From Gammaproteobacteria bacterium (GTDB lineage: Bacteria > Pseudomonadota > Gammaproteobacteria > SZUA-140), in the NCBI GenBank assembly GCA_026982565.1, contig JALSGV010000201.1, positions 27,658-91,657 on the forward strand: a DNA stretch of 64,000 nt. Direction: 5' to 3'. Positions 20,018 to 51,822 of this stretch are shown here, in pieces. The position numbers and the translations under genes were made by a program. Each line of letters begins with the position of its first letter. Positions within the stretch are counted from its first letter, which is position 1. The notes under the pieces were generated by a model. The model was given only the letters and a program-made list of their open reading frames with translations, did not search any database and was not told the DNA's origin.

Positions 20018-20088
20018 TATCTCAAGCAGTCAGATGAGCAGCGGGGCAATGCCTGCCGCGAGTAATACAGGTTTTCCGGTTTTTATGC

Positions 20089-25703: not shown

Positions 25704-25706
25704 CGT

Positions 25707-27521: not shown

Positions 27522-27553
27522 AAATGATTCCTTATTACATCATTACATCAAAA

Positions 27554-28702: not shown

Positions 28703-28892
28703 TATGTGTAAGGCCCTCAAATTCTGAACACATTTTTGCACAAAATTCAAACCGCCTTCGCCACGGATGCGCCGGGATTACCAGTCGAAGCTGGAAAACG
28801 GAATTAAATTCAAAGATGATTTTTGAGGTGAAAGCAGGCGATCAGGCCACGGCTTGTTTCAACTGGCCAAACAGCAGATTTGGCAATAACTC

Positions 28893-30197: not shown

Positions 30198-30222
30198 AAT
30201 ATAGTAGGTTCATATCGACGCA

Positions 30223-31608: not shown

Positions 31609-31610
31609 TT

Positions 31611-33529: not shown

Positions 33530-33611
33530 TTTAGATATTCACGCTTTCCGATATGACTCAGAGACTGAATACATGCTCGTGGTTTCGCCAAGTTTTCAGT
33601 TCACAGTGGGA

Positions 33612-34892: not shown

Positions 34893-34954
34893 CCCACGCC
34901 GCTAAGGTGTCACAAGCAAGATAATCTTGCCGCTGGCGCCGCGTGATATCATAG

Positions 34955-36055: not shown

Positions 36056-36064
36056 ATCGGCATC

Positions 36065-36655
36065 TTATTCATTAATTATCCTTACGGTATTATTCTCAAG
36101 GCGGTACCGCTGACCAGTGGCTGTACAGAACGCCTCGCTATTCCCTGAAAGCGGCAAGACCAGTCTCTCACCATATTGGCTCATCCACCCCACCTGTTTG
36201 GCTGGCACGCCAACCATTAATGCATATGCTGGGACGTCCTTATTAACAACTGCGCCGGCGCCTATAAATGCATACTCCCCAATCGAGGTGCCACATACAA
36301 TCGTGCAATTTGCACCCAATGTTGCCCCCTTTTTGACTATTGTATCCCGATACTCGCTCTTTCTGTTTATCGCTGACCGCGGATTGTAAACATTTGTAAA
36401 AACCATGGACGGCCCACAGAAAACGTCGTCTTCTAAAATTACATTATCATATACAGACACGTTATTCTGAATTTTAACATTGCTCCCAATTTTGACAGTA
36501 TTTCCAACAAAGACATTTTGCCCAAATGTGCATCCTCTTCCAATTCTTGCCCCACTACATATGTGAGTCCAATGCCATATTTTTGTGCCTTTACCAATAA
36601 TTGCGCCATCATCGACAATGGCAGTTTCATGTATGAAAATATTATCGGTAATCAC
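36065..36655 (-). CDS. hexapeptide N-acetyltransferase (WbpD/WlbB-like UDP-3-amino-sugar N-acetyltransferase)
   Basis: Left-handed beta-helix repeats throughout ([50 protein letters not shown]…). 196 aa. Confidence 0.75.
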
Positions 36656-38612
36656 TAAATAGATCTCCGCTAATTCTTCTGGCTATATATTTTGAGCCAA
36701 ATACTGAAAGATGATCATCGTCAGCATATAAGTAACTATCTTCCTTGAATGAATAACACTTGTCCGAATCACACAGATATGGCATTGGATCAATAATTTT
36801 AAGAATTTTAAATTCTTTTCCATATAGGAATGCCAGATCTCTGTATTTTTTCATCCGTAGCAAATACAGGCCTTTTTTTACAGTTGCAGCATTTGTAGAT
36901 ATACCCCAAATATCGAAAGGCCTGGCTACGATCTCTTTGGGAAGGAAATCCAGTTCTGGGTTTTCTAGAAAATAAAATACCTCTCTAATGTGTCGTATAT
37001 TTTGAATCCTCTCCAGTGTGTTTCTAAATCCATCAAAGTATGTTTTATAGGTCAGCTTCTCCTGCCTAATAATCTGTAAACTCTCATTCACATTCTCGAG
37101 AGTAAAGCCTCCGTCAACCTCTCCATGAATATATACAGGCCCCCTCGTTGCCATAAAAACCCTGTCTATTTTCTCATCAGATTCAATTATTGAGAAAATT
37201 TGCCCTATCTTTTTCACACATTCATCCGACTCTTTCGTGCTCCAGCCCCATTCAAACCCTATCAGTGTCGGACAGCTAGAGTTTGCCATGAGCAGAACTC
37301 CATATCCCCTCTTTTGAGCTTCCTCTGAAATTCCCGGGTATATTGCATGCGCATGGGAGTCACCTATTATCGCAATATACCTCTCTTCTTGCAGGGCATC
37401 GGCTCGACAATAGTCAAACAGCCGCTCATCAGACTGCTTGTATTTTACGTATTCTTCACATTGTTTATCCACCATCTCAGGACGTGTAAAATCTATATTG
37501 TACTTTTTCATGTAACTTAAATTGTGGCGATCTGGCAACCCATTTTTATCACTTACATATGCTCCTGCAACACCAATTGACAGAAGCAACAAAAGTAAGG
37601 TTATAGTAATAAAAGATCCTTTAGCATATCTCAGCTTTTCTATATATCGGTATGTTAGATACGCAAAAAAAAATGAAAATATTATGATGGACAACATAGA
37701 GATAGAATTAGGATACTGGCCTATGTAAATATAGAGGAATGAGATAAAAAGCCAGTGCCACAAATACAGTGGATAACTGATCAGACCAACATTTACCATA
37801 ACCTTAAAATCAAGCGAACGGGAATTAGCCATGATTATCATTATGGCCCCCAGCGTGGGAACTAATGCAGCCCAACCCGGATAAACCACATCTTCATTAA
37901 GAATAAGTGCGGATGAAAGGATCAGGAGCAGGCCAGATACACAAAGGTACTTTCTCTCCTTAATCTCCTTTCTATACAAGTACACACCTAAAAAAGACCC
38001 CAGTGCCAACTGCCATATTCTCGTGAGCGTATTGTAGTAGACATTTTCAGGATATGCTTCTATAAAATAGATATTTGCTGCAAATGATACTAAGACTATA
38101 AATGAAATGATGTATATTGGCCTTAGAAATGCCTGCTTTAGTAGAGCCAGCAATATCAACGGCCAAAAAATATAGTATTGCTCTTCAACGCTGAGAGTCC
38201 ATAAATGCAGAACTGGCTTGTAAACACTTTCAACATCGAAATATCCTGCCTCACCTATAAGAATAAAATTAAGGATATATATAGACGAATATTTAACATG
38301 TTCCGCCAACCTCTCATATTCATCTGGAAATAGTATCAGCCATCCAACAAACATTGCTGCGAGCAACACAGTAATTAATGCGGGAAACAGCCTCCTGATC
38401 CGTCGACTATAAAACTCGAGCAATGAAAAATCGTTTTTATATACTGAATCTATAATAATCTGTGTTATCAGGTAACCTGATATCACAAAGAAAATATCAA
38501 CACCAATAAACCCACCAGGAATAATATCTGGGAACGCATGAAAGAAAACAACCAGCAGAACTGACAAACCCCTCAGGGCATCAATATCCCTTCTATATGC
38601 AATGGCATGCAT
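36642..38612 (-). CDS. acyltransferase-3 family O-acetyltransferase with C-terminal SGNH domain (OafA/OatA-like)
   Basis: N-terminus [20 protein letters not shown]…[16 protein letters not shown] is the AT3 signature. About 10 TM helices, then a soluble domain with [10 protein letters not shown] (SGNH). Confidence 0.85.
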
Positions 38613-38618
38613 GTAGGA

Positions 38619-39677
38619 TCAATATTCCAGTGGTAATGATACCGTTCTTCCATCTCGTGCTGAAATATAACCGGCGATAAGAAGCTCCAATGACCTCAAT
38701 CCCTCCCGGCCATCTGTTTCTGGCTCTGTCTCGCCGCGGAGGACATCAATAACATTCTTGTAGTATAGAGGGTGACCAAACCCATAAACCGATGTTGTCT
38801 CATAATTAGCCTCTTTTATGTTGCGGTCATAGTCTCTTTCATCACTAAACTCCCAGGACTGAATATCGTTTACCGCAACCCCTCCCACACGCACTGTCCC
38901 TTTTTCTCCGAGGATTGTGATTGATCCTTCTAGATTCTTCGGGTATGTCAGCATAGTTACACTCATTGACCCAAGTGCGCCACTCCGCCACTTGATATTC
39001 ATTACCCCTGTATCCTCGACTTCTATATTTCGCGCAAGCGTTCCAGTCATTGCTTGAACAGACTCTACCGGCCCAATGAGCCAATCAATCAGGTCAACGT
39101 AGTGGCTGGCCTGGTTCATAAAAGCACCTCCATCAAGCTCCCACGTTCCACGCCACTTTGCTTGATCATAATATTCCTGGGGTCTTGTCCAGAATACATT
39201 GATGTTTACCATATATATACGCCCGAAACGCTTCTCCTCCAAAGCTCGCTTGAGTAATTGTAATGTTGCATTCTTCCTGTTCTGCTTTACAACAAACAGG
39301 TGAACTCCTGCTTCATCACAAGCCTTCACCATGCGCAGTCCATCTTGCCACCGGGTCGCCATTGGCTTTTCTGTCAGAACATGAATACCGATCCGAGCAG
39401 CCATCATGGCCTGCTCAGCATGAAGGCCACTTGGTGAGCATATAGCTACGACATCAATTTGTTCTGATTCCAGCATTGACTGAAAATCCTGATATCCAGG
39501 GACACCATGTTTTTTATGATATTTTTCCATGGAGGTTTTATTTCTGTCACATATCGCCACCAGCTCCATGTCGTTTTTGTGTCTTTCAATTGAAGCAAAG
39601 TGATTCTCTGAGATACGTCCACACCCAACTATTGCTATACGAATTTTACGATCTTTAATTACTCTGCTGATAGGCAT
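38619..39677 (-). CDS. Gfo/Idh/MocA-family NAD-dependent sugar 3-dehydrogenase (WbpB/WlbA-like)
   Basis: IRIAIVGCGRISENHF Rossmann fold. Start at MPISRV with GGAGA RBS six nt upstream. The ORF-track start 39755 is upstream read-through. Confidence 0.8.
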   Translation of the reverse strand: MPISRVIKDRKIRIAIVGCGRISENHFASIERHKNDMELVAICDRNKTSMEKYHKKHGVPGYQDFQSMLESEQIDVVAICSPSGLHAEQAMMAARIGIHVLTEKPMATRWQDGLRMVKACDEAGVHLFVVKQNRKNATLQLLKRALEEKRFGRIYMVNINVFWTRPQEYYDQAKWRGTWELDGGAFMNQASHYVDLIDWLIGPVESVQAMTGTLARNIEVEDTGVMNIKWRSGALGSMSVTMLTYPKNLEGSITILGEKGTVRVGGVAVNDIQSWEFSDERDYDRNIKEANYETTSVYGFGHPLYYKNVIDVLRGETEPETDGREGLRSLELLIAGYISARDGRTVSLPLEY

Positions 39678-39858
39678 ATTACAGTCTCCAGACTGGATCA
39701 GGAAGAATCTCCTTAACGTTAATGAGTACCACATTATCCTTGGATATGGAGTCATAGTCGTTCATAGAGAGTTTTTTTAACTGGCCATATCCGACCGCAA
39801 CTACAATAGTCATATCTTTTACATTCCGACCTGAGAATATTTTAAGGTTTGATCTCTT

Positions 39859-40143
39859 TTATTAACCCGGCAATAATATATATCGTATTCAGCCATTGCG
39901 TGCCGGTTCGCTGCAAGGCGGCGAAACTTGCTGTAGTCATTCTACAGCAAGTTTCGCCAACGCAGTCAGCGGGACGGCACGCAATGGCCTGTCTTTTAAT
40001 ATCAACCTGTTAGGGACTTCAGGCCTGCGCTGGCACGGCGTTGCGGCGCTTGCCAATGGAATCACCATTGCCTGCGCACCGCGCCTTGTTCCAGCACAGG
40101 CCTGAAGTCCTGAATACGATATATATTGTTGCCGGGTTAATAA
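39859..40143. mobile_element. 285-bp MITE-like element: 34-bp terminal inverted repeats (33/34 match) enclosing two long near-perfect hairpins
   Basis: Left TIR ttattaacccggcaataatatatatcgtattcag (39859-39892). Right TIR ctgaatacgatatatattgttgccgggttaataa (40110-40143). Internal perfect inverted repeats: ccattgcgtgccg/cggcacgcaatgg and ggcgaaacttgctgtag/ctacagcaagtttcgcc. Also gacttcaggcctgcgctgg/ccagcacaggcctgaagtc. Confidence 0.55.
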
Positions 40144-40530
40144 CCAGCCGCGGGATTCCATGTCGATCAAGATGCGTTCCGCGTCTTCTGTTAGTGTGGC
40201 TACATGCTCATGTCCTTTTTTTAGGGCATCAGCCAGCCTGCCGACCCTGACAGAGGGGGTCTCTTTCTCCACAATCTGCGCCAGGTTGGGGGCGCTAAGC
40301 ACAACATCTATCTTCCGTCCCCCTAACTTGAGACTGATGCGGCCCGATATTCTCGCACTCAGCCATGCGGGCTCATCAACCGGATGCGGGATTTCAACCA
40401 GCAGGTCAATATCACCACCACGGGCATTATCATCTGTGCGGGAGCCAAACAAGGTGACTTGCGCCTCATCTCCAGCCAGGTCCGCAATTGCCTGGCGGAT
40501 TATATCAATTTGATACGGTTCTAGTCTCAT
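39937..40530 (-). CDS. minimal nucleotidyltransferase (MNT, Pol-beta superfamily) antitoxin-like protein; 3' end runs into the MITE-like element
   Basis: From the ATG at 40530: MRLEPYQIDIIRQAIADLAGDEAQVTLFGSRTDDNARGGDIDLLVE (GS…DIDL NTase motif). The frame continues without a stop into the element, and the last ~68 codons are element-encoded. The native C-terminus is probably lost. Confidence 0.6.
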   Translation of the reverse strand: MRLEPYQIDIIRQAIADLAGDEAQVTLFGSRTDDNARGGDIDLLVEIPHPVDEPAWLSARISGRISLKLGGRKIDVVLSAPNLAQIVEKETPSVRVGRLADALKKGHEHVATLTEDAERILIDMESRGWLLTRQQYISYSGLQACAGTRRGAQAMVIPLASAATPCQRRPEVPNRLILKDRPLRAVPLTALAKLAVE

Positions 40531-40678
40531 TATTATGCTCTGCCGGGGGAGGGTGTCGAAAAAACCAGTTTTCTTTAGTTGGCTGTGAGGAATGAACTCC
40601 AACATGTTTGGTATTCTATCGTCGTGCTTAACCGGCAGGTAACGCGGAAGACTGTCCGGTTGAAGCAATTGTTCAGCT

Positions 40679-40945
40679 CTATCCGTAGTACGTCCACATT
40701 CGGATAATTTTAACAACACGCTCTTCTTCGTAAACTTGATAGACCAATCTATGTTGAATATTTATTCTTCTTGAATATGCCCCAGACAAGTCACCAACTA
40801 GCTTTTCATAAGGTGGTGGTTTTTTATAAGGATTCTCTTGCAGCAATTCCAGCAACGATTTAGCCTTCTGCTTCAATCCAGATGCTGCAATTTTCTTAGC
40901 GTCTTTTTCTGCCTGTTTTGTATACATTAACTCCCAACTCACCAA
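40679..40945 (-). CDS. yoeB: YoeB/Txe-family toxin (RelE/ParE superfamily)
   Basis: …YSRRINIQHRLVYQVYEEERVVKIIRMWTYYG parallels E. coli YoeB …WSRRITEEHRLVYAV…IAACRYHY. Seven-bp overlap with the upstream antitoxin. Confidence 0.85.
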   Translation of the reverse strand: MVSWELMYTKQAEKDAKKIAASGLKQKAKSLLELLQENPYKKPPPYEKLVGDLSGAYSRRINIQHRLVYQVYEEERVVKIIRMWTYYG

Positions 40946-41181
40946 TCAAGCTCCTTAGAGCACTCTGATATATTTTGACTCATACCTTCTTTAATTGATT
41001 CCCGCATTCCGGGTACTGACAGCAAATGTAGCGTTTCAGCAATTGCATTCCAATCGTCCTCAGACACAAGGACGGCATTAGCTCTTTTTCCCGTAATTAC
41101 AATGGGTTGATGAGTCTCCGCCGCCTCATCAATAAGGCTATAGAGCTTAGAGCGGGCTTCTGTTGCATTCAATATAGTCAT
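40939..41181 (-). CDS. yefM: YefM/Phd-family antitoxin
   Basis: MTILNATEARSKLYSLIDEAAETHQPIVITGKRANAVLVSEDDWNAIAETLHLLSVPGMRESI is a typical Phd/YefM fold sequence. Direct GTAC-containing repeats lie upstream (41195-41230), consistent with a YefM-YoeB operator. Confidence 0.85.
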   Translation of the reverse strand: MTILNATEARSKLYSLIDEAAETHQPIVITGKRANAVLVSEDDWNAIAETLHLLSVPGMRESIKEGMSQNISECSKELDW

Positions 41182-41295
41182 AATAAATACCCCCTCAATA
41201 TAGCGTACGACTAAGCGTACGGTACATCAAGGCCTATTTTGTCCCTTTACAGGGAATCCCGAGGCCCCGAGCTTGGCTCGGCACAAGGTGCCTTG

Positions 41296-41484
41296 TTAGG
41301 CGATATACCCCCATTTCTTGAACTGTTCATGTAATTCAGGCTCATCCTTGAATACTTGGCAATAAATATACTCCGGCGCCAAATCTGCGCCGTTCGGCCA
41401 TACTATCGTTTCAGGCTCATCATCAACTTTTAGTTTGGAAAATATGGACACGTTCTTCAACGGTTCGAACGCCGGCCCTCTCAA
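41296..41484 (-). pseudogene. probable 5'-truncated DUF2442-like gene remnant
   Basis: The 62-aa ORF …GPAFEPLKNVSIF…VDDEPETIVWPNGADLAPEYIYCQV resembles the C-terminal half of DUF2442 proteins. The position where the N-terminal half should be is occupied by REP-like repeats (41535-41665). Confidence 0.3.
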
Positions 41485-41534
41485 AGCGCTTGATAAATCC
41501 GCAACGTGTAAAACAATGCTTTTTTCTCCATTTA

Positions 41535-41665
41535 TCCCCTCACCCCAACCCCTTTACCCTCAAGGGGCACCGAGGTCCCAGCGGGAGAGGGGCTTTTGCG
41601 ACACCCTCCACAGAGGCGGGGGGCTTTTGCGCCTTCCTACGGAGGGAGGCGGTTGGGGGCTTTCT
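41535..41665. repeat. REP-like intergenic repeat cluster (family with core GGAGGGTGYCGCAAAAG / CCCCTCTCCC)
   Basis: cccctcaccccaacccc…gggagaggggcttttgcgacaccctcc…gggggcttttgcgcc. Related copies are at 44725-44800, 53160-53400 and 60128-60200. Confidence 0.6.
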
Positions 41666-41698
41666 TGAGGGCAAGATAGGTTGTTCGCCACCTCACTT

Positions 41699-42031
41699 TT
41701 AGGCTCTTTCGTAGAATACTTTTCCCGCCCTTTTTATATGCTCGATCAGATTCTCATTGTCTATCTGATCATATAACGACAAGTCTGTTTTATAGGGCAA
41801 TAACAAATCGTCTATCTTCAGTTCAATGGCTTGCAGATCCTCCCATTTCATCGCTGACCCTATTATTGTCAGGTCGATATCTGACGCTGGTCTGTAGTCG
41901 CCTTTAGCCCTTGATCCATAGATTATAACCTGTTCTACAGCAGGCGTATCCGCGAATATGCTGCGTATTTTCGAGATGACTTGTTCGTCCAGGCCAAAGT
42001 CCGGCTCGATATTATTGGGCGCTGTGTTCAT
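41699..42031 (-). CDS. minimal nucleotidyltransferase (MNT) protein, second copy in the triad
   Basis: …VIIYGSRAKGDYRPASDIDLTIIG… Four-bp overlap (ATGA) with the upstream HEPN gene. Confidence 0.75.
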   Translation of the reverse strand: MNTAPNNIEPDFGLDEQVISKIRSIFADTPAVEQVIIYGSRAKGDYRPASDIDLTIIGSAMKWEDLQAIELKIDDLLLPYKTDLSLYDQIDNENLIEHIKRAGKVFYERA

Positions 42032-42450
42032 GCAGCACCTTCCTGCAGATGCGCCAGGCGCTTATCCAGCGCCATGAACAGTTGATGATATTTGTCCTTT
42101 ATATTTGTTAGTATCGATTCCGCCGTTTCTTCATTGTACGTATGCGAGGTTCGATTTCGATCAACCAGCATTTGCATCCAACCCTCACCATCTTCGATCA
42201 ATCCTCTGCTGAAGCTTTCCCGTATGGTGTCACGAGAACCCACGATTCCACCGATACCTTGCCATAATAGGTAGTCCTTCAGCGCATTCCAGGCAAGCTC
42301 GTAGGTATATTCAAAAGCCTGAATCACGCCCTGTTTTTCCAAAGGCGTCAATTCCCGTTCCGCCATCAGGCGCATGGCGCTATCCAGCTGTCCAAAAGCC
42401 TTTTTGAATTGGGCGTATCTTTGCTTCCAGCGGATATCTTCGTTTGTCAT
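42028..42450 (-). CDS. HEPN-domain protein (HepT / HI0074-like nucleotidyltransferase substrate-binding protein; putative RNase toxin)
   Basis: Rx4HxY motif present: DRNRTSHTY. 140 aa, helical. Four-bp overlaps on both sides with the flanking MNT genes. Confidence 0.8.
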   Translation of the reverse strand: MTNEDIRWKQRYAQFKKAFGQLDSAMRLMAERELTPLEKQGVIQAFEYTYELAWNALKDYLLWQGIGGIVGSRDTIRESFSRGLIEDGEGWMQMLVDRNRTSHTYNEETAESILTNIKDKYHQLFMALDKRLAHLQEGAA

Positions 42451-42740
42451 AGCTGAATTCCTGTTTTTTTCGCCATGCGGTGGATGGCTCTCAATGGCGC
42501 ACTCCGGAGTTTTAGGTCGATGTCTATTCGCTGTTCCCCGATACGCTCCCAGAGCTTGCTGAGTATGCGGAATTTGTGCTTTAACAATTTCTCCTGGATT
42601 TCCGTTTCAGCATAAAGATCGATATCACCACCATGGCGGGAATCATCTAAGCGTGACCCAAAGAGGTAGATATCTGCCGTAGGGTCCACGCCGTGAATGA
42701 CCTCGCGGATTGCCGTTTTTTCATGTTCATTCAAGCGCAC
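42447..42740 (-). CDS. minimal nucleotidyltransferase (MNT) protein, first copy in the triad
   Basis: MRLNEHEKTAIREVIHGVDPTADIYLFGSRLDDSRHGGDIDLYAE…. Confidence 0.75.
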   Translation of the reverse strand: MRLNEHEKTAIREVIHGVDPTADIYLFGSRLDDSRHGGDIDLYAETEIQEKLLKHKFRILSKLWERIGEQRIDIDLKLRSAPLRAIHRMAKKTGIQL

Positions 42741-42877: not shown

Positions 42878-44647
42878 TTAGAAAGACCAGATCAGCGGCA
42901 CGAGTACCACGACAATTATACCGACCAGGAGTGTCAGTGGGATACCGATTTTGACATAATCCGAAAAATGGTAGCCGCCGGGTCCATAGACCATGAGGTT
43001 GGTCTGGTAGCCGATGGGGGTGGCGAAGCTGACCGAGGCCGCGACCATGATGGTGATCATGAAGGGCATGTAGTCCACGCCCAGCGCCTGGCTGGCGGCC
43101 ATGGCGATGGGAAACATGAGCACGGCGGCCGTATTGTTGGTGATGACGGCGGTGAACAGCGCGGTGATGGCATAGATCAATACCAGGGCGACGTGGGGAC
43201 TCTCGCTCGTCAGGGCCAGCAGGGTTTGTGCAATGAACTGGGCGGCGCCGGTTGTCTGGAGCGCCTGCCCGATGCCCAGTGAGGCGGCAATCACGATCAG
43301 CACCTGCCAGTCCACGGAGCGCCTTGCCACGCTACCTACTGTACACTTTGTAATCAGCATCAGGCCTGCCGCCAGCATGGCGGCCTTGAGCATGGTCAGC
43401 ACCCCTGTCGCGACGGACAGCACCATGGCGACGAGGATCAGGATGGCGGTGAGGGCATTTTCATGACGGGGCGGGCTGGAATCCTCCAGGCGGCTGATGA
43501 GATAAAAATCCCTTGAATTGCGCTGCTGCTCGATAAAATCCGGGGGGGCTTCAAGCAGCAGGACGTCGCCCGGCCGTAGGACGATGTCGCCGATTTTCAT
43601 TTTCATTTGCTCGCCATTGCGGGCCACGGCGATGATGGCGGCGTTGTACCTGTTCCGGAAGCGGCTTTCCCTGATCGTCTTCCCCGCCGTGGGGAAGCTG
43701 TCGGAGACGACGGCCTCGACCAGGCAACGGGTGGTCCTGGGCATGTTGAGCTTGAAGACCTGGTTGGTCGCCGGCCTGAGGCCGCGAATCTTTTGCAGGT
43801 CGACCACTGATTCCACCACGCCCGCGAATACCAGGCGGTCGTTGGCCTGGAGCTTCTCCTGCGGTGAAACGGCCGGCAACAGGGCGTCCTTGCGGTCGAT
43901 TTCTATCAGATACAGGCCGGGCAGCTGGCGCAGCCCCGCCTGCTCGATGGTTTTGCCAATCAGCGGCCCGTCGGGATCGACAATCATCTCCACGGTATAG
44001 CCGCGCACGTCCGAAAACTGGCTGATGGCGGAGCGCCGGTCGGGCAGCAGCCATTTGCCCAGTACGATGACGGCGATGATGACGAATAGCGTCAGGGGGA
44101 GGCCTATCCACGCCAGTTCGAATATCCCCAGGCCGGAGGAGCCCGTTTCCTTGATCAACAGGCCGTTTATCACCAGGTTGGTGCTGGTGCCAATCAAAGT
44201 ACAGGTGCCACCCACCATGGCGGCATAACTCAATGGTATCAGCAGTTTTGAAATTGAAAGGCGGTACCGCCGGGACCAGTCCTGGATGGCGGGGATCATC
44301 ATGGCGACAACGGGCGTGTTGTTGAGAAACGCGCTCATGGCCGCGACCGGGGTCATCATTCTGACCTGCGCCCCGGCAAGGGTTTTGGGGCGCCCCAGGA
44401 TGTATTCAACCACCCAGGCGATGGCCCCCGTTTCCTTCAGCCCGGAAACGACGACATAGAGGGCGCCCACGGTCACCATGCCCTCATTGGCCAAGCCGGC
44501 CAGGGCCTGCTCGGGAGAGAGGATTCCGCCGACGAGGAGGAGCGTCAGGCCGCCCATTAAGATGACATCAGGGGGGATCCGGTTCAGGACCAGCAGGAAG
44601 AAGCAGAGGCCTATGACCGCCAATGTTACCCAAGCGTCAATTTCCAT
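42878..44647 (-). CDS. DASS/SLC13-family anion permease with two internal TrkA-C (RCK_C) domains; likely sulfate or other divalent-anion transporter
   Basis: 589 aa. N- and C-terminal transmembrane repeat units flank two soluble TrkA-C-like modules (…GYTVEMIVDPDGPLIGKTIEQAGLRQ…; …RCLVEAVVSDSFPTAGKTIRESRFRNRYNAAIIAV…). Lies immediately upstream of cysC. Confidence 0.75.
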   Translation of the reverse strand: MEIDAWVTLAVIGLCFFLLVLNRIPPDVILMGGLTLLLVGGILSPEQALAGLANEGMVTVGALYVVVSGLKETGAIAWVVEYILGRPKTLAGAQVRMMTPVAAMSAFLNNTPVVAMMIPAIQDWSRRYRLSISKLLIPLSYAAMVGGTCTLIGTSTNLVINGLLIKETGSSGLGIFELAWIGLPLTLFVIIAVIVLGKWLLPDRRSAISQFSDVRGYTVEMIVDPDGPLIGKTIEQAGLRQLPGLYLIEIDRKDALLPAVSPQEKLQANDRLVFAGVVESVVDLQKIRGLRPATNQVFKLNMPRTTRCLVEAVVSDSFPTAGKTIRESRFRNRYNAAIIAVARNGEQMKMKIGDIVLRPGDVLLLEAPPDFIEQQRNSRDFYLISRLEDSSPPRHENALTAILILVAMVLSVATGVLTMLKAAMLAAGLMLITKCTVGSVARRSVDWQVLIVIAASLGIGQALQTTGAAQFIAQTLLALTSESPHVALVLIYAITALFTAVITNNTAAVLMFPIAMAASQALGVDYMPFMITIMVAASVSFATPIGYQTNLMVYGPGGYHFSDYVKIGIPLTLLVGIIVVVLVPLIWSF

Positions 44648-44724
44648 GGTGAGCTACCGGTTGTCCTGTCGGCATGGGTTTTCTGTCCAGGTGTATCGTT
44701 AAATCGTATACGGCGCGCCTCCAT

Positions 44725-44800
44725 CACTCCCCTCACCCCGGCCCTCTCCCGGAGGGAGAGGGGGCTTGTTTGGGCGATGGCGTGTTTGAGTGGGAGAGGA
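44725..44800. repeat. REP-like intergenic repeat (same family as 41535-41665)
   Basis: cccctcaccccggccctctcccggagggagagggggcttgtttgggcg…gagtgggagagg. Confidence 0.55.
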
Positions 44801-44831
44801 ATTCCGCGCCGGGCTCGTGATCGTGGCTTGG

Positions 44832-45443
44832 TTATTTCTGGATCACGCCCCGTTCCAGGAGGAGATTGATCACCTTGGCGGCGCTTTCCTCCAGGGACTC
44901 ACTGCCCGTGTCAACGGTCAATTCGGGATTCAGCGGTTCTTCATAGGGCGAATTGATGCCCGTGAATTCCTTGATCTCCCCTGCCCTCGCCTTTTTGTAG
45001 AGCCCTTTTACATCACGCTCCTCGCAGATGTCCAGGGAACACTTGCAGTAGATCTCGAAAAAATCACCCTCAGCGTTGATCTTTCTGACATTGTCGCGGT
45101 CCGCCCGGAAGGGGGAAATAAAGGCCGTCAGACTGATCACGCCCGCCTCCACGAAGAGCTTGGCCACCTCGCCGATGCGGCGGATGTTCTCCACCCGGTC
45201 CTCATTGGAAAAACCAAGATCTCCGCAGAGCCCATGACGGATGTTGTCGCCATCCAGAACATAGGTGCGGCACTTCATTTCGTAGAGCTTTTCCTCCACG
45301 GCATGGGCCAGCGTGGATTTCCCTGAACCCGACAAGCCGGTGAACCACAGGATGACGCTCTTGTGGCCGTTCAGTTTCTCACGGGCTTCACGGTCGATGG
45401 TGGCATGGTGCCACACCACGTTGCTGCTGACTTTTTTTTCCAT
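44832..45443 (-). CDS. cysC: adenylyl-sulfate (APS) kinase
   Basis: Walker [12 protein letters not shown]. Also …[12 protein letters not shown]…GFS…DR.ENIRRI…ISPF… APS-kinase motifs. 203 aa. Confidence 0.9.
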
Positions 45444-45569: not shown

Positions 45570-45800
45570 TTATGCTGCTTTGATTACAGCTTCCTCTATA
45601 TTTTTTGGTAGGCTTACATAAATAAAGTATTCTTCTGGATACAAATAATCCTCACCAGACTCATCTATCACCCGTATTTGCTTGCGTTGCTCCGCCTCTG
45701 AATCTGGAAGCGCCTCATATATCTTTCTCTTTTCCAGAGAAGCAGGGTAATCTTCGTTTTTTATACAGATAACCAATTGATGTGATTTCATATTTCTCAT
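45570..45800 (-). CDS. hypothetical small acidic protein (76 aa)
   Basis: Intact ORF in a low-GC patch. Acidic (many D/E). Located downstream of the basic 87-aa ORF. No family recognised. Confidence 0.35.
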   Translation of the reverse strand: MRNMKSHQLVICIKNEDYPASLEKRKIYEALPDSEAEQRKQIRVIDESGEDYLYPEEYFIYVSLPKNIEEAVIKAA

Positions 45801-45810
45801 GGTTGTTGAC

Positions 45811-46074
45811 TTAATCCAGGTAACGTTTGATTTTTATTTCCTTTTTTCCACTGCCTGTCGCTTCATACCAGTGTACTTCGGCGCGTACTATCGACCCATC
45901 AGTCAATTTGACCTTCGCCACACCTTTTCTTTTTTTCCATTTTCCTTTGCCATATATCTTCTGTAATCTGGACAGCTCGCGAATTCTTTTCCCTGTCGCA
46001 AATGTCTCCTGATTCTCAATCCTTCCGATTATTTCAAATTGCATTAAGCGACTATTCCCTGTGCCCTTGCCCAT
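45811..46074 (-). CDS. hypothetical small basic protein (87 aa, Lys/Arg-rich)
   Basis: Intact ORF in a low-GC patch, 10 bp upstream of the acidic ORF. No family recognised. Confidence 0.35.
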   Translation of the reverse strand: MGKGTGNSRLMQFEIIGRIENQETFATGKRIRELSRLQKIYGKGKWKKRKGVAKVKLTDGSIVRAEVHWYEATGSGKKEIKIKRYLD

Positions 46075-46094: not shown

Positions 46095-47141
46095 TCAGTG
46101 GGCTTTGCCTCCCCGGCTGCTGTCGAGCACCCGGTAATTCTCAATATACCAGTTATAGGCATCTTCTATGCCATGCCTGAGCTCAATTTTTTGCTTCCAG
46201 CCCAGGGCGCTTATGCGGCTGATATCGAGAAGTTTACGCATTGTGCCATCGGGTTTCGACGTATCAAAGACCAAATCCCCTCCGAACCCGACGATATCCT
46301 TGACCAGCAGGGCCAGCTCCCTGATGGTGATGTCCTGGCCGCAGCCGATATTGACCAGTGGCAGAGCATAGGTCGCTGGCCCGGACACACGGGGATTGAG
46401 AGCCTGACCGAAGGTCTCGCCTGGCAGGCCCATGAGGTACATGCAGGCATCGGCCATGTCGTCACTATGGAGGAATTCCCGGCGTGGATTGCCCGTGCCC
46501 CAGACGGTGACGGTGTCCTGGCCACTGGCTTTTGCTTCATGCATTTTCCGGATCAGCGCCGGCAACACATGGGAGTTTTCGAGATCAAAATTATCCCCTG
46601 GGCCATAGAGGTTGGTGGGCATCACCGCCAGGTAGCGGGTGCCGTACTGACGATTATACGCCGCGCACATCTCGATGCCGGCGATCTTCGCAACAGCATA
46701 GGGGCTGTTGGTGGCCTCCAGCGGCCCGGTCAGCAGATACTCTTCCCTCATCGGCTGCGGGCAGTCCCGGGGGTAGATGCAGGACGACCCAAGGAACAGC
46801 AGGCGCTTGACCCCCGTGCGCCATGCCTGATGAATGACATTGAGCTGGATGGCCAGGTTCTGCTGTATAAACTCAGCGGGACAGGTTTTATTGGCCATGA
46901 TCCCACCCACCTTGGCGGCGGCAAGAAAGACATACTCGGGTTTTTCATTTTCGAAGAATGCTTGGACTGCTTCCTGATTGGTCAGATCCAGCTCGCGGTG
47001 AGTGCGCGTGATGAGGTTTTTGCAGCCAGCGCCTTCGAGTTTCCTCAGGATGGCGCTGCCGACCAGGCCCCGGTGCCCCGCCACATATATTGGGGATTCA
47101 GGGTCGAGGGGCGGGGATTGTGTGTCTGGATTATCTGGCAT
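46095..47141 (-). CDS. fcl: GDP-L-fucose synthase (GDP-4-keto-6-deoxy-D-mannose 3,5-epimerase/4-reductase)
   Basis: …IYVAGHRGLVGSAI…LAAAKVGGI…SSCIYP…YAVAKIAG… SDR-fold Fcl/WcaG signature. 348 aa. Confidence 0.9.
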   Translation of the reverse strand: MPDNPDTQSPPLDPESPIYVAGHRGLVGSAILRKLEGAGCKNLITRTHRELDLTNQEAVQAFFENEKPEYVFLAAAKVGGIMANKTCPAEFIQQNLAIQLNVIHQAWRTGVKRLLFLGSSCIYPRDCPQPMREEYLLTGPLEATNSPYAVAKIAGIEMCAAYNRQYGTRYLAVMPTNLYGPGDNFDLENSHVLPALIRKMHEAKASGQDTVTVWGTGNPRREFLHSDDMADACMYLMGLPGETFGQALNPRVSGPATYALPLVNIGCGQDITIRELALLVKDIVGFGGDLVFDTSKPDGTMRKLLDISRISALGWKQKIELRHGIEDAYNWYIENYRVLDSSRGGKAH

Positions 47142-47187
47142 TGATTCTTCGTCCTACTGCTTTCGGGGGGCTTTTATGTCAAGAACC

Positions 47188-47706
47188 CTATTCCCCGCAT
47201 AGCACTATCTTTTTCGGCAACCTCTCCTCGTTGACGCCCATGCGCACCTTGGCATAATCACGGATCTTGTTATAGGCGTTAAGCAGAAGATGGCTGTATT
47301 CCTTCGCCATTTTCAGGTCTTCCGCAAAGGATTCCGGACTCTGCATGTGTTCATGTACTAAGCGGTTGCGCAATTCCCGGGCCTCAAGCCATCGCTCAAC
47401 GCTGTCCATTACACCCAGTTGCTCAGCACGGTTCAGGTTCTCTATCAGACTGCCTGGCCTTTCCGCCTGGGCCATAAGCCATCGGGGAAGGAGCTTATCC
47501 GCTATGGTATCCTGCATGCGGCCGAACCGGGAGACAAAGGCTTCAAGCCGCTCAGCAATCTCCGGCGCGGATTCCAGTCCGCGCACCCAATCTGCCGTAA
47601 TAGCACAGGCATCCAGCCGCCCCCAACTGTAAGCAAGGTGCCTTCCCTCATGGGAAACGATATCCAGAGTATGGAGAAAGCGGTCTACCGGCAAAACCTT
47701 GTTCAT
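47188..47706 (-). CDS. HEPN-like putative toxin partnered with the upstream MNT
   Basis: 172 aa, helical, with RNRLVHEH (Rx4H, a HEPN-type motif). The ATG overlaps the MNT stop (ATGA at 47703-47706). Confidence 0.55.
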   Translation of the reverse strand: MNKVLPVDRFLHTLDIVSHEGRHLAYSWGRLDACAITADWVRGLESAPEIAERLEAFVSRFGRMQDTIADKLLPRWLMAQAERPGSLIENLNRAEQLGVMDSVERWLEARELRNRLVHEHMQSPESFAEDLKMAKEYSHLLLNAYNKIRDYAKVRMGVNEERLPKKIVLCGE

Positions 47707-48002
47707 AGCTGCACCCCTGAGCGTAATGCTTCCTCATGTACGGCTTGACGCTGAGTCTCTGGATCGAGAATCAAGACATCGATGGGTTGGTCGCCAAGAC
47801 GGACCTGGAGACGGGCCACGAATTTTAACACCTTGCGTTCGCGTTCGCTGACAGGGTGTTCAGAACGGACAAGAAGATCGATATCGCCACCACGAGCTTC
47901 ATCATCGACGCGGGAGCCAAACAAGAGAACACTGGCATCCGGACCAAATATCTCATGCACGGTCTCGCGGATTACGGATTTTTCTTCATCGGTGAGGCGC
48001 AC
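47703..48002 (-). CDS. minimal nucleotidyltransferase (MNT) antitoxin-like protein
   Basis: (V)RLTDEEKSVIRETVHEIFGPDASVLLFGSRVDDEARGGDIDLLV. The N-terminus aligns with the other MNTs in this window (MRLNEHEK…, MRLEPYQ…). This favours the GTG start at 48002, five nt after the gmd stop, over the in-frame ATG at 48056 inside gmd. Confidence 0.65.
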   Translation of the reverse strand: MRLTDEEKSVIRETVHEIFGPDASVLLFGSRVDDEARGGDIDLLVRSEHPVSERERKVLKFVARLQVRLGDQPIDVLILDPETQRQAVHEEALRSGVQL

Positions 48003-48006
48003 CTTG

Positions 48007-49095
48007 CTATTCGTGGTAATCAAAGGTCCTGAACCCTTCCCGGCGGCAGAGTTCATCGCGTTCCGCTGTTTTGAGATCCTCCCGCACCATTTCCGCAACT
48101 AGTTCGTCCAGCGTAATCCTTGGCTGCCACCCCAGCTTTTCCCTGGCCTTGCTTGCGTCTCCCAGCAGGGTCTCGACTTCCGTTGGCCGGAAATAGCGTG
48201 GATCCACCGCCACAATCAGTTTACCCGTATGTTCGTCAAAACCTTTCTCTGCTTCACCCTCGCCTTCCCAGCGTATGCCGATGCCAAGCTCCTTCGCGGC
48301 GGCATTGACGAAATCCCTGACGGTGTATTGTATACCACTGGCTATAACGAAATCTTCCGGCTCATCCTGCTGCAGCATCAGCCACTGCATTTCCACGTAG
48401 TCCCTGGCATGCCCCCAGTCGCGCCTGGCTTCCAGATTTCCCAGAAAAAGGCAGTCCTGCAGCTCAAGCTTGATGCGCGCCAGGGCGCGGGTGATTTTCC
48501 GGGTAACAAAGGTTTCACCCCGCAGCGGGCTTTCATGATTGAACAATATGCCGTTACAGGCATAGATGCCATAGGCCTCGCGGTAATTGACCGTGATCCA
48601 GTAGGCATAGAGTTTTGCCACCGCATAGGGTGAGCGGGGATAGAATGGCGTTTTTTCGTTCTGAGGCACTTCCTGGACCAGACCATAGAGCTCGGAAGTG
48701 GATGCCTGATAGTATTTTGTTTTCTTTTCAAGTCCAAGAATACGGATCGCCTCCAATATACGCAGGGCGCCGAGAGCATCGGAATCAGCGGTGTATTCCG
48801 GTTCCTCGAAAGAAACCGCGACATGGCTCTGGGCAGCCAGATTATAAATTTCATCAGGCTGCACCTGCTGAATCACCCGGATCAGGCTGCTGGTATCCGT
48901 CATATCGCCGTAGTGAAGGACGAAATGGCGGTTTTCAACATGAGGATCCTGATAGAGATGGTCTATGCGATCGGTATTGAAGAGGGAGGTGCGGCGCTTG
49001 ATACCATGTACTTCATACCCCTTGGCCAACAGGAACTCAGCGAGGTAAGCGCCATCCTGACCGGTAATACCAGTAATCAAAGCCCGCTTTTTCAT
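48007..49095 (-). CDS. gmd: GDP-mannose 4,6-dehydratase
   Basis: [37 protein letters not shown]…YGDMTD…YNLAAQSHV… is the canonical Gmd sequence. 362 aa. Confidence 0.95.
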
Positions 49096-49210
49096 GTCAT
49101 GCCCCTCGTATCGATCGGGTGGCTTTGGCTATTGACCAGCCTGGAAGAGAAAAAACCAGCTGATCCCTCCAGAGCGCTGCCCTGAATGTGCGTACTTTAG
49201 ATAGACCCTT

Positions 49211-50689
49211 TCAATCACGCCCGTAGTTATCCTCAAAACGGACGATGTCGTCTTCACCGAGGTATGAGCCGGATTGCACCTCGATAAGTTCCAAGGGCAG
49301 GGCGCCGGGATTCTCCAGTCTGTGCGTCACGCCGATGGGGATATAGGTAGACTCATTTTCACTGATCAGAAAGGTTTCATCACCCTTGGTGACTCTGGCC
49401 GTCCCCCTGACGACGATCCAGTGCTCGGCCCGATGGTGATGCATCTGCAACGAGAGTGAAGCCCCAGGATTGACGGTGATGCGTTTGACCTGATAGCGCT
49501 CTCCCCTGTCGATACCCTCGTAGTTCCCCCAGGGACGGTGAGCAAGGCGGTGTATCTGATGCTCTGTGCGGCCATCCTTTTTGAGCTGACTGACGATTTC
49601 CTTGACCGCCTGGGCCTGGTCCTTATGGGCGACCAAGACGGCATCGGCGGTTTCCACGACGACGATATCATCCAGCCCCAGGGCAGCCAGCAGACGGTGC
49701 CCCGAGATGATCAGGGAATTCCGAGAATTGATGGCAATGACATCCCCCTGAAGGATGTTGCCGTTTTCATCCCGGGGCAGGACCTCACAAAGGCTTGACC
49801 AGGCGCCCACATCAGACCAGCCAGCATCCAGGGGAATGACATAGGCCGTGGTGGCAGTATCAACCGATTCTGCCGCGGTTTCCGTCAGGTTCTCCATCAC
49901 GGCATAATCGATGGAGTCGCTGGGACAGCTTTCGAAACAATCCTCCGCCACGCGATAGAAATCGCCATCCTCCTTTCCCAGGTTATAGGCTTCCTGGCAG
50001 GCAGTCAGGATACCGGCCTGGTACCGGCCGATGTTGTCCAGCCAGGTCTTCGCCTGCATCATGAAGATACCGCTGTTCCACAAATAGCCGCCAGACGCCA
50101 CGTAAGCCTCGGCGGTCGGGGCATCAGGCTTCTCCACGAATTGCTCAAGAATGCAGGGTTCGGGATGTTTTTCACCCGGCAAGGCGCGGCCTTTCTTGAT
50201 ATAGCCAAACCCGGTTTCCGGCCTGTCCGGGACGATGCCAAATGTCACAATCCCCCCCTGGGCCGCGATCCCGGCCCCAGACAGAACAGCATCGTGAAAA
50301 GCCTTGACATCGAGAATCAGATGGTCAGCGGGCATGATCAACATGATGGCATCCGGCGCCCCCTCAGAAACCCGCAGCGCCGCCAGTGTGGCCGCGGGCG
50401 CCGTATTCCGCCCTATGGGCTCCAGCAATATCTTGTCATGAGCCTGATTGGCCTGGCGCAACTGCTCGGCGACAAGGAAACGGTGGGTTTCGTTACAGAT
50501 GATGAGTGGCTCAGCAATCCTGATTTCATCGGCGCCTTGACCCTGCAGGTCTGACAGACGATCCACCGTTGCCTGGAGCAGCGTCAGGTCACCGCAGGGG
50601 GCCAGGAGCTGTTTGGGATAGTATTCTCGCGACAAGGGCCACAGGCGGGTGCCGGAACCTCCGGACAAAATAACAGGCTGGATGATCAT
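49211..50689 (-). CDS. manC: mannose-1-phosphate guanylyltransferase / mannose-6-phosphate isomerase (type II PMI-GMP)
   Basis: PVILSGGSGTRLWPLSR…YPKQ… NTP-transferase N-terminus. C-terminal cupin with …HHHRAEHWIVV.G.A…. Confidence 0.9.
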   Translation of the reverse strand: MIIQPVILSGGSGTRLWPLSREYYPKQLLAPCGDLTLLQATVDRLSDLQGQGADEIRIAEPLIICNETHRFLVAEQLRQANQAHDKILLEPIGRNTAPAATLAALRVSEGAPDAIMLIMPADHLILDVKAFHDAVLSGAGIAAQGGIVTFGIVPDRPETGFGYIKKGRALPGEKHPEPCILEQFVEKPDAPTAEAYVASGGYLWNSGIFMMQAKTWLDNIGRYQAGILTACQEAYNLGKEDGDFYRVAEDCFESCPSDSIDYAVMENLTETAAESVDTATTAYVIPLDAGWSDVGAWSSLCEVLPRDENGNILQGDVIAINSRNSLIISGHRLLAALGLDDIVVVETADAVLVAHKDQAQAVKEIVSQLKKDGRTEHQIHRLAHRPWGNYEGIDRGERYQVKRITVNPGASLSLQMHHHRAEHWIVVRGTARVTKGDETFLISENESTYIPIGVTHRLENPGALPLELIEVQSGSYLGEDDIVRFEDNYGRD

Positions 50690-50763
50690 CCGTATATTTT
50701 AACAAAAATATCAGTTACTTGCATTCTCATGCCCAACCAGGGGAAAGGGATCGACGGCTGAGT

Positions 50764-51822
50764 TTACTGTGCGACATCGAGCTTCTTTTTCTTCTTGACC
50801 TTTTCCGAAAATTCTTGTGCAAATACGGCAGTCAGTGCCGCGACCAGGCCCAGTACAGCGGCCAGAACAATGATAAGTTTGCGGTTGGGCGCCGTCGGGT
50901 TCTGAGAGCGCATCGTTGGCGTGATCGCCCGCGTCTTGATGATATTGGCGATCTTGGCCTTCATTTCCAGGATCTTCTCCTGCTGTTCCGCCTGGGCACG
51001 GCTGTTATTTGCCAACTCCTGTTGCAGCAAATCCCGCTCCGATGCCAATCCCAGGTGCAGTTGCTCTATCAACATGGATTCGCGCTCCTGATACTGCTGG
51101 ATTTCGTTGTCAATGAGCAGCAGGGTCATGGCCTTGGCCTCACCCGTCACCTCGCTGACTGCCTTGATGCGGTTTTTCCTGGATTCCTCGATGACCTTGC
51201 CGATTTCATCGATCTGTTTGGTAATCAGCTTGGATTTCTCATCGAGGCGCTCTATCTGGTTTTCGGTAAAGACCGCTTTATCCTGCAGTTCACCCAGTTT
51301 GTTTTCTGCGCCATGCAATTGGGCCTCGAGTTCCGCTTTAATGACAGAAATCGTACTATCATGATCTTTTGCAATCTTATCGACGATGGATTGATGCAGT
51401 TCCGCCAGAAGGAGGTTCTCACCTTCCCTACCTTCACTGCTCAATACTACGATTTCGCTTCCCTTGGGGATCGCGGCAGCTATATTGATATTTGTGCTCT
51501 CTTCAGGATGGGTGCTTCCATATTCATGGATGACCAGAGGTATGTAACTCTGCTGCAATTTGGCCAATACGGTGCCTGGCTCTTCCAACAATCCATCAGT
51601 ACTGCGGGCAATTTCTATAGAGGTTGTATAGGTATATTTGTTGCTTTGCACCAGCGCAACGCCCAGTCCCAGCAAGACTGCCCCCACAAGAATAGTTACA
51701 AGCAGTTTTTTCCGTTTCTCCAATATCAACCAGAGATCCACCAGGCTGATCTCATCCTCCTGGTAGTAGGTGTGTAAGGCCTCGATCTCCTGGGGCAGGA
51801 TTTGTCTTTTTTCGCTATTCAT
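50764..51822 (-). CDS. wzz: O-antigen chain-length determinant (Wzz, PCP-1 family)
   Basis: N-terminal TM (LLVTILVGAVLLGLGVALV), a long periplasmic coiled-coil region, C-terminal TM (LIIVLAAVLGLVAALTAVF) and a lysine tail. 352 aa. Confidence 0.8.
   Translation of the reverse strand: MNSEKRQILPQEIEALHTYYQEDEISLVDLWLILEKRKKLLVTILVGAVLLGLGVALVQSNKYTYTTSIEIARSTDGLLEEPGTVLAKLQQSYIPLVIHEYGSTHPEESTNINIAAAIPKGSEIVVLSSEGREGENLLLAELHQSIVDKIAKDHDSTISVIKAELEAQLHGAENKLGELQDKAVFTENQIERLDEKSKLITKQIDEIGKVIEESRKNRIKAVSEVTGEAKAMTLLLIDNEIQQYQERESMLIEQLHLGLASERDLLQQELANNSRAQAEQQEKILEMKAKIANIIKTRAITPTMRSQNPTAPNRKLIIVLAAVLGLVAALTAVFAQEFSEKVKKKKKLDVAQ

Follow-up and report, generated by a model that had tools for sequence, protein, structure and literature searches.

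A resident APS kinase-permease pair beside an O-antigen cassette with a PAPS-type sulfotransferase in a gammaproteobacterium

The 64,000-nucleotide stretch of DNA analyzed here (the window; positions 27,658 to 91,657 of contig JALSGV010000201.1, GenBank assembly GCA_026982565.1) comes from a gammaproteobacterium of the SZUA-140 lineage and contains a locus that, by its gene content from rpsA-ihfB to wbpM, is an O-antigen locus of the Wzx/Wzy type. Its source is a metagenome contig of 86 kb, k141_29949 in ENA ERZ27262642. The genes of interest are an adjacent minus-strand pair, i.e., cysC, encoding an adenylyl-sulfate (APS) kinase, and a permease gene, together with a sulfotransferase gene of the type that uses 3'-phosphoadenosine 5'-phosphosulfate (PAPS). 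The pair lies between fcl (46095 to 47141) and a toxin-antitoxin island (39937 to 42740). A preliminary description had placed both open reading frames (ORFs) there, which the ORF table (minus strand) and Pfam corroborate, and had interpreted them as a candidate supply line dedicated to a sulfated O-antigen. The features that bear on this proposal are the following.

30223 to 31608, minus strand: DUF7033/VimE-like deacetylase, partner of the sulfotransferase (Pfam, NCBIfam)
31611 to 32573, minus strand: FemAB-like Acetyltransf_6 protein, partner of the sulfotransferase (Pfam, NCBIfam)
32573 to 33529, minus strand: PAPS-type sulfotransferase, 318 amino acids (aa), the sole recognizable PAPS consumer in the window
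42878 to 44647, minus strand: SLC13/CitMHS-type permease with two cytoplasmic TrkA-C (RCK_C) domains, 589 aa; candidate Na+/H+-coupled sulfate importer (Pfam and PDB matches)
44648 to 44831, no strand: spacer between cysC and the permease gene, 184 bp, with a GC-rich palindrome at 44742 to 44762 (sequence scan)
44832 to 45443, minus strand: cysC, adenylyl-sulfate (APS) kinase, EC 2.7.1.25, 203 aa (Pfam, NCBIfam, and PDB matches)

Profile matches extend over the full-length ORFs of the permease, cysC, and the sulfotransferase and are strong, not matters of chance. The CysC protein scored 237 bits against APS_kinase (PF01583; gathering cut-off [GA], 21.1), 317.5 bits against NF003013 (cut-off, 163), and 286.7 bits against TIGR00455 (cut-off, 138.7), and it matched Arabidopsis APS kinase 1 (APK1; PDB 3uie) with an E value of 1e-63. 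Its Walker-A P-loop (GxxGxGKS/T), LDGD(N) motif, and FISP serine loop (FISPF) all align with those of APK1. The identification of cysC in the preliminary description was therefore correct, and strong homology predicts a canonical APS kinase converting APS to PAPS. A scan of the spacer returned no promoter-like site, and a terminator role for the hairpin at 44742 to 44762 was ruled out, since there is no T-run on the coding (minus) strand and the element was flagged on the plus strand only. Nothing argues against co-transcription of cysC and the permease gene.

The best Pfam model for the permease is CitMHS (PF03600; 277 bits, E value of 2e-82). Two TrkA_C stretches (residues ~219 to 285 and ~309 to 375; 79 bits, E value of 2.5e-22 in Pfam) are located between two membrane halves and probably regulate or gate transport from the cytoplasmic side. 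Na_sulph_symp (PF00939; 52.9 bits, GA of 27) covers the C-terminal half only (residues 402 to 587), and residues ~402 to 587 matched VcINDY (E value of 1.4e-16), SLC13A3 (9e-13), and human SLC13A1 (NaS1; 2e-5) in the PDB. The permease had previously been called DASS-type. Its relationship to SLC13/DASS holds, given the VcINDY and SLC13A1 matches, as do the two TrkA-C domains, whereas by sequence it is not a canonical DASS (TC 2.A.47) member, because its score against the NCBIfam "dass" model TIGR00785 (115.6 bits) falls under the cut-off of 198.6. The C-terminal segment SVSFATPIGYQTNLMV fits what we take to be the sodium:sulfate symporter signature PS01271.

The sulfotransferase matched Sulfotransfer_3 (PF13469) at 50.7 bits (GA, 27). 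Its location inside the Wzx/Wzy cassette, where it adjoins wzx and lies between wzx and a putative wzy, agrees with the preliminary description, as does the PVFIIGAPRSGSTL loop quoted there, in which the 5'-phosphosulfate loop is GAPRSGST. Residues G47, P49, R50, S51, G52, and T54 of the 5'-phosphosulfate-binding (5'-PSB) motif and R185 of the 3'-phosphate-binding (3'-PB) motif are invariant in 31 homologs, and S193 (3'-PB) is nearly so. A sequence search of the PDB gave no direct match. For the AlphaFold (AF2) model (predicted local distance difference test [pLDDT], 93.7), the top 34 PDB matches in Foldseek were all PAPS sulfotransferases (E values down to 2e-6), including Stf9, Stf1, CurM-ST, HS 3-OST, TPST, and NDST, with template modeling (TM) scores of only 0.4 to 0.5, because of which the acceptor type is not readable from the fold matches. 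As judged from its motifs and modeled fold, the protein is a genuine PAPS-binding enzyme.

The pair and the sulfotransferase differ in base composition. At third codon positions, the GC content (GC3) of cysC (0.73) and of the permease gene (0.80) is like that of core genes (rpsA, 0.78; aroA, 0.74; manC, 0.69; fcl, 0.70), whereas the sulfotransferase gene has a GC3 of 0.35. Throughout 22092 to 39755, GC3 stays at 0.31 to 0.44 in all genes, compared with 0.61 to 0.80 in the flank (0.61 to 0.70 in the conserved part from 46095 to 51822).

The same division appears in the six relatives examined, whose permeases are 94, 81, 79, 72, 70, and 68% identical to that of the window (L002 is the 94% relative, GCA_011322035.1; the others are among L085, L086, L088, L089, and L090, and the six include GCA_050486285.1, GCA_016716465.1, and GCA_964437335.1). 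All six have pyrF-comEA-(wzz)-manC-(gmd-fcl)-cysC-permease at the same position, with cysC next to the permease gene. The order is wzz-manC-gmd-fcl-cysC-permease in L002, L085, L086, and L090 (L085 and L086 have two Wzz-position genes, and L090 has gmhB/SIS genes between fcl and cysC) and the shorter manC-cysC-permease in L088 and L089. The downstream cassettes differ in each relative (e.g., phosphonate [PEP mutase] genes together with a MarR_EPS regulator, LicD/glycerophosphotransferase genes, or methyltransferases), and no sulfotransferase was detected downstream of the pair in any of the six, over 3 to 10 kb of contig per relative, with Pfam and a custom sulfotransferase hidden Markov model (HMM). 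Among the ORFs considered as hidden sulfotransferases, two downstream of the pair in L090 (445 and 250 aa) were rejected as kinase-like, with classical Walker-A GxGK[ST] loops, and those in L088 and L089 were rejected as LicD- or glycerophosphotransferase-like proteins. In "Candidatus Tenderia electrophaga" (66% permease identity), the permease-cysC pair is found amid chemotaxis, pyrimidine, and ABC-transporter genes, i.e., in a nonglycan context.

The sulfotransferase, for its part, travels with other genes. Its homologs (45 to 67% identical) occur in Halothiobacillus, Thiohalocapsa, Halomonas, Electrothrix, and others, and the three-gene order Sulfotransfer_3-Acetyltransf_6-DUF7033 (30223 to 33529 in the window) recurs in L092 (6381 to 9707), L093 (10001 to 14687), and L094 (8707 to 12075). 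Counting the window, the trio is thus found in four unrelated clusters, within Wzx-type polysaccharide loci and usually beside GFO/hexapeptide/DegT genes, and L092 carries a cassette syntenic with the variable cassette of the window. Neither cysC nor the permease gene occurs within 10 kb of the trio in these three contexts. An AMP-binding enzyme interrupts the trio in L093, and an asparagine synthase gene lies upstream of it in L092 and L094.

The contrast in GC3 (0.73 and 0.80 versus 0.35) and the synteny kept in six relatives indicate that the pair is resident and the sulfotransferase imported; on this comparative evidence, the cysC-permease pair is an ancestral resident of this gammaproteobacterial clade, at the fcl-proximal border of the O-antigen locus whatever cassette follows. 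Co-inheritance or co-variation of PAPS genes and sulfotransferase was not found, given the GC3 contrast, the pair without a recognizable sulfotransferase in relatives, and the sulfotransferase homologs without the pair. The words "dedicated" and "matching" in the preliminary description are consequently not supported. It had named, as evidence that would overturn its proposal, the pair conserved at this position without a sulfotransferase in the O-antigen locus, and this is the arrangement of the 72% relative, in which no sulfotransferase is recognizable over the whole locus to WbpM. What remains, at a probability of roughly 60%, is that the pair is a resident sulfate-uptake and PAPS-synthesis module usable by the imported sulfotransferase, not a supply line inherited with it.

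To place the permease in a wider context, we compared 160 permease-family loci, comprising 80 species-level orthologue loci (50 to 72% identity; Gammaproteobacteria, Balneolaceae, Planctomycetota, Cyanobacteria, Trueperaceae, and others) and 80 metagenome loci (45 to 62%, among the matches listed). Genes for sat, cysDN, cysC, or cysQ lie within 10 kb of the permease gene at 37 loci (22 of the 80 genome loci and 15 of the 80 metagenome loci), in almost all cases next to it and on the same strand, with identities confirmed by NCBIfam. The arrangements include cysD-cysN-cysC-permease (Marinobacter), permease-sat/cysC-cysQ (Ectothiorhodospiraceae, Methylonatrum), and permease-cysQ-cysD-cysNC (Balneolaceae). 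This same-strand linkage supports the earlier suggestion of a candidate sulfate importer, and we consider it quite likely that the permease imports sulfate to feed PAPS synthesis. An APS-kinase domain accompanies the ATP sulfurylase at almost all loci that have the latter (the single exception is cut off by a contig edge), so the permease-linked pathway would make PAPS and not stop at APS. The ECG[LIV]H signature of (P)APS reductases is absent from the ORFs of all 160 loci.

In a Pfam scan of 21 sulfate-activation loci, the neighbors were mostly glycosyltransferases, epimerases/dehydratases, UDP-sugar dehydrogenases, Wzx, Wzz, WbpM-like proteins, and Bac_transf. Pfam sulfotransferases were among the listed families only in the first scan (six loci), in which Sulfotransfer_3 was found in four proteins and Sulfotransfer_1 in four. 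In neither neighbor scan do PAPS-reductase-type CysH and sulfite reductase rank among the top 25 Pfam families, a listing that leaves room for single occurrences. Sulfotransferase-like ORFs were found at 5 of the 37 loci with activation genes and at 3 of the 123 loci without (Fisher P = 0.017); these counts are lower bounds, because the custom HMM is narrow (the Pfam Sulfotransfer_1 protein of L094 was caught only once added as a seed). From this pattern we tentatively entertain, as a doubtful generalization, that the TrkA-C-bearing SLC13-like family is a widespread sulfate importer for PAPS bound for sulfation and not for sulfate reduction, and that the pair is a "plug-and-play" PAPS source at the edge of the O-antigen locus. 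One metagenome locus (L158, 5832 to 13466) has an apparently complete sulfation operon on one strand, consisting of genes for a sulfotransferase, cysD, cysN, the permease, and sat/cysC, and thus carries both ATP sulfurylase types together.

Several observations weigh against the resident-module interpretation. The PAPS pathway is incomplete in the window, since tblastn searches detected no sat, cysD, cysN, or cysQ there; the preliminary description had likewise placed the ATP sulfurylase outside the window, as the searches with Sat, CysD, and CysN bear out. The top Pfam model of the permease is the "citrate transporter" CitMHS, the curated DASS cut-off is failed, and sulfate transport by the family is inferred from operon linkage to sat, cysDN, cysC, or cysQ, while about three quarters of the permease-family loci show no sulfur gene nearby. 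In the 72% relative, a Chromatiales metagenome-assembled genome (MAG; GCA_050486285.1), the locus was read through to WbpM-NTP_transferase and contains no recognizable sulfotransferase (one 587-aa ORF is without annotation, and a 553-aa ORF has weak TPR matches only), so the pair must serve something else there.

An alternative is housekeeping assimilation, in which the pair would provide ordinary sulfate uptake and a PAPS route to cysteine via PAPS reductase, its adjacency to O-antigen genes being functionless inherited synteny. Such a role would fit the retention of the pair in every relative whatever the cassette, including the complete locus just described, as well as its core-like GC3, the "Ca. 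Tenderia" pair among unrelated genes, and Balneolaceae permease-cysQ-cysD-cysNC operons that are not visibly glycan-linked. However, no (P)APS reductase signature accompanies any of the 160 loci, CysH and sulfite reductase are outside the top 25 neighbor families (single occurrences aside), polysaccharide genes and sulfotransferases recur as permease neighbors, and Allochromatium vinosum, a cultured member of the Chromatiales, assimilates sulfate via cysDN and APS reductase, without CysC (PMC3368242). The evidence, which is indirect, favors sulfation over assimilation, because the neighbors are glycan and not reduction genes and because the CysC of A. vinosum is off the assimilatory route; housekeeping assimilation appears rather unlikely. 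It is very unlikely that a di/tricarboxylate or some other anion is the substrate of the permease and that cysC is its neighbor by coincidence. The CitMHS model, the name "di/tricarboxylate transporter" given to homologs by JGI, the TIGR00785 score under the cut-off, and the absence of a nearby sulfur gene from most family loci would agree with that substrate, but same-strand sat/cysDN/cysC/cysQ operons recur in Gammaproteobacteria, Balneolaceae, Trueperaceae, cyanobacteria, and planctomycete-type loci, at a frequency far above the ~2 to 3% that we estimate for a random gene. The fit of SVSFATPIGYQTNLMV to the presumed PS01271 signature and an architecture in common with SAC1/SLT (PMC8780407) likewise point to sulfate.

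A further possibility concerns the fate of the sulfate. Within the trio, the sulfotransferase could use it transiently, either to turn a hydroxyl into a leaving group (CurM-like) or to form an N-sulfate intermediate on a de-N-acetylated amino sugar, in which case PAPS would be consumed and the mature O-antigen would be unsulfated. The conservation of the trio in four unrelated clusters, the presence of CurM/olefin-synthase and NDST sulfotransferase domains among the best fold matches, and the resemblance of DUF7033 to the UDP-diNAc-glucuronate deacetylase (VimE) model, although its 140 bits fall short of the model's cut-off of 440, would be compatible with this. Against it, Stf9, Stf1, and HS 3-OST, which are bona fide O-sulfotransferases of glycans and glycolipids, matched the fold equally well, and at TM-scores of this level the acceptor type cannot be read. 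We also know of no bacterial glycan pathway with sulfate as a leaving group, and we regard transient sulfation as very unlikely. In the resident-module interpretation, the acceptor may be a derivative of 2,3-diacetamido-uronic acid, to which the GFO/hexapeptide/DegT genes point, and the deacetylase-like DUF7033 protein in the trio leaves room for N-sulfation (after N-deacetylation), aminoacylation, or transient sulfate.

In the resident-module scheme, the SLC13-like permease would import sulfate, with the two TrkA-C domains probably gating it from the cytoplasmic side, and an ATP sulfurylase encoded outside the window would make APS, which CysC, by strong homology, is expected to phosphorylate to PAPS. 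The PAPS-type sulfotransferase of the horizontally acquired cassette would then transfer sulfate in the cytoplasm to a sugar of the O-unit, ahead of flipping by Wzx, and 3'-phosphoadenosine 5'-phosphate (PAP) would be removed by a CysQ that is also encoded outside the window. With a genuine CysC and a PAPS-type sulfotransferase in one locus, the sulfated O-antigen proposed in the preliminary description is a reasonable prediction, and we lean slightly toward the O-antigen of this strain being sulfated.

Known systems offer close but incomplete parallels. Region 2 of the capsular polysaccharide (CPS) cluster of Cobetia marina KMM 1449 contains cysN/cysC, cysD, cysQ, a sulfate permease gene, and sulfotransferase genes (PMC11766843), and the CPS cluster of Vibrio sp. 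KMM 8419 contains second copies of cysC/cysN/cysD and three sulfotransferase genes (PMC11641403); both polymers were chemically shown to be sulfated. The authors of these studies regard such an arrangement, with PAPS-making genes and a sulfate permease gene in or beside a polysaccharide locus that has a sulfotransferase gene, as a hallmark for the synthesis of sulfated polysaccharides (PMC11766843, PMC11641403), and the principle that PAPS genes and a sulfotransferase together mark a sulfated polysaccharide locus is already published. Like these clusters, the window has a PAPS-making gene, a candidate sulfate permease gene, and a sulfotransferase gene in or beside a surface-polysaccharide locus. 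Unlike them, it has only cysC and the permease gene, with no ATP sulfurylase gene or cysQ, and therefore no complete PAPS pathway; it is a Wzx/Wzy O-antigen locus and not an ABC (kps) capsule locus; and its pair belongs to an ancestral flank, whereas its sulfotransferase is imported. The Cobetia permease is likened to that of the window by description and not by family, and the polymer chemistry is known in Cobetia and Vibrio, whereas sulfation is predicted from genes in the window. By analogy, the window locus, although it lacks two features of self-contained sulfation clusters (i.e., a complete PAPS pathway and co-inheritance), plausibly works like one. In rhizobia (nodPQ/nodH) and Xanthomonas (raxPQ/raxST), extra sulfate-activation genes give PAPS to a sulfotransferase that is dedicated to one molecule, either secreted or at the cell surface. 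These systems differ from the window in that ATP sulfurylase is duplicated with APS kinase, no permease gene is linked, and the acceptors are a Nod factor or a peptide and not an O-antigen.

Parallels to the individual proteins exist as well. In A. vinosum, assimilation consists of cysDN, APS reductase, and sulfite reductase, and a separately located CysC leads to a second, PAPS-forming branch (PMC3368242). The SAC1 and SLT proteins of Chlamydomonas are SLC13-like and bear TrkA-C domains, the SLT proteins being described as Na+/SO4 transporters, and SAC1 homologs with two TrkA-C domains have been reported in bacteria (PMC8780407, PMC3355512). Compared by description, the window permease has, like SAC1 and SLT1-3, an SLC13-like membrane core that is interrupted by TrkA-C domains on the cytoplasmic side; unlike it, SAC1 and the SLTs are eukaryotic, SAC1 is considered a sensor, and TrkA-C domains number three or four in the SLTs. 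Bacterial DASS/PerO-type low-affinity sulfate permeases are secondary carriers of the ion-transporter superfamily for which sulfate import has been proposed or shown; their likeness to the window permease is also by description, and the review covering them does not mention TrkA-C domains (PMC5840216).

If the O-antigen is sulfated, bacterial glycan sulfation, seen in a few marine heterotrophs in culture, would reach into an uncultured lineage of gammaproteobacteria, the closest relatives of which in this analysis are MAGs of the hydrothermal-vent and Chromatiales types, and the combination of a resident PAPS source with a mobile sulfotransferase cassette could generate a new serotype. On the "plug-and-play" reading, an incoming sulfotransferase cassette would be served at once, and surface-glycan sulfation would be a recurrent and hitherto unrecognized trait of these vent and sediment sulfur-cycle bacteria. 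The most notable remainder is the family-wide link of a misannotated permease, PAPS synthesis, and glycan loci, which offers a large permease family, whose current annotations are "citrate," "di/tricarboxylate," or "TrkA" transporter, a testable function in taking up sulfate for PAPS synthesis.

The remaining genes place the pair at the boundary between a conserved flank and a variable cassette. On the minus strand, the order begins with aroA, cmk, rpsA, ihfB, lapA, pyrF, and comEA, followed by wzz, manC, gmd, an NTase/HEPN-like pair, and fcl, and then by two small ORFs, cysC, the permease gene, the toxin-antitoxin island, and the variable cassette. The first part of the cassette consists of genes for a GFO oxidoreductase, an AT3/SGNH acyltransferase, a hexapeptide transferase, DegT, Wzx, the sulfotransferase, the FemAB-like protein, and DUF7033; the second part consists of genes for a putative Wzy, a glycosyltransferase, a WbuX-like amidotransferase, another glycosyltransferase, Bac_transf, a PglD-like protein, and DegT. 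The locus ends with WbpM, a Wzy_C/ligase-like gene, and NTP_transferase. These features are located as follows.

22092 to 39755, minus strand: low-GC variable Wzx/Wzy O-unit cassette (Pfam, NCBIfam, GC3)
39937 to 42740, minus strand: toxin-antitoxin island with NTase/NTase_sub_bind pairs and Phd/YoeB, separating the pair from the variable cassette (Pfam)
45570 to 46074, minus strand: two small low-GC ORFs of 87 and 76 aa between fcl and cysC (GC content of 0.42 and 0.37, versus 0.55 to 0.61 in flanking genes)
46095 to 47141, minus strand: fcl, conserved flank (this and the following rows, Pfam/NCBIfam; flank, 46095 to 51822)
47188 to 48098, minus strand: NTase/HEPN-like pair, conserved flank
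48007 to 49095, minus strand: gmd, conserved flank
49211 to 50689, minus strand: manC, conserved flank
50764 to 51822, minus strand: wzz, conserved flank

The two small ORFs at 45570 to 46074 had no Pfam match at an E value of 0.1 and are probably a recent insertion, because the gap between fcl and cysC is only ~240 bp in L002. No second sulfotransferase was found in the window. A 434-aa ORF (28893 to 30197, minus strand) without a Pfam or NCBIfam match occupies the same place as a 436-aa Wzy_C protein of L092 and, for that reason, is probably the O-antigen polymerase, and a second gene with a Wzy_C domain (18809 to 20017, minus strand), after WbpM, may encode a ligase.

In L002, phosphonate genes (for PEP mutase, a phosphonopyruvate decarboxylase-like TPP enzyme, an aminotransferase, and nucleotidyltransferases) and methyltransferase genes (16312 to 20906) replace the sulfotransferase cassette, which suggests that an almost identical genomic frame there holds the genes for an O-antigen decorated with phosphonate. 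An "EPS-associated" regulator of the MarR family (TIGR04176; score in L002, 158 bits) marks the start of the variable cassettes after the permease gene in L002 (11888 to 12217), L088 (14777 to 15259), L089 (12079 to 12432), and L090 (12002 to 12337); it follows the permease gene directly in three of these relatives and a reverse-strand GGDEF/EAL gene in L088. The window has no such regulator, and the toxin-antitoxin island is found in its place; other toxin-antitoxin modules occupy this junction in some relatives. Toxin-antitoxin-like or mobile modules also occur at flank junctions, at 39937 to 42740, 47188 to 48098, and 45570 to 46074 in the window, at 7302 to 7667 and 11883 to 13649 in L085, and at 7112 to 7423 and 9243 to 9946 in L086. 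These modules (NTase/HEPN-type pairs, Phd/YoeB, 23S_rRNA_IVP, and MqsA-like) differ between relatives, as if the gmd/fcl, fcl/cysC, cysC/permease, and permease/variable cassette junctions were recurrent insertion sites. Unrelated to the cysC-permease pair, the region from 10595 to 14232 (minus strand) encodes a CrtC-like lipocalin (hydroxyneurosporene-synthase family) beside a HAMP-PAS-GGDEF-EAL signaling protein.

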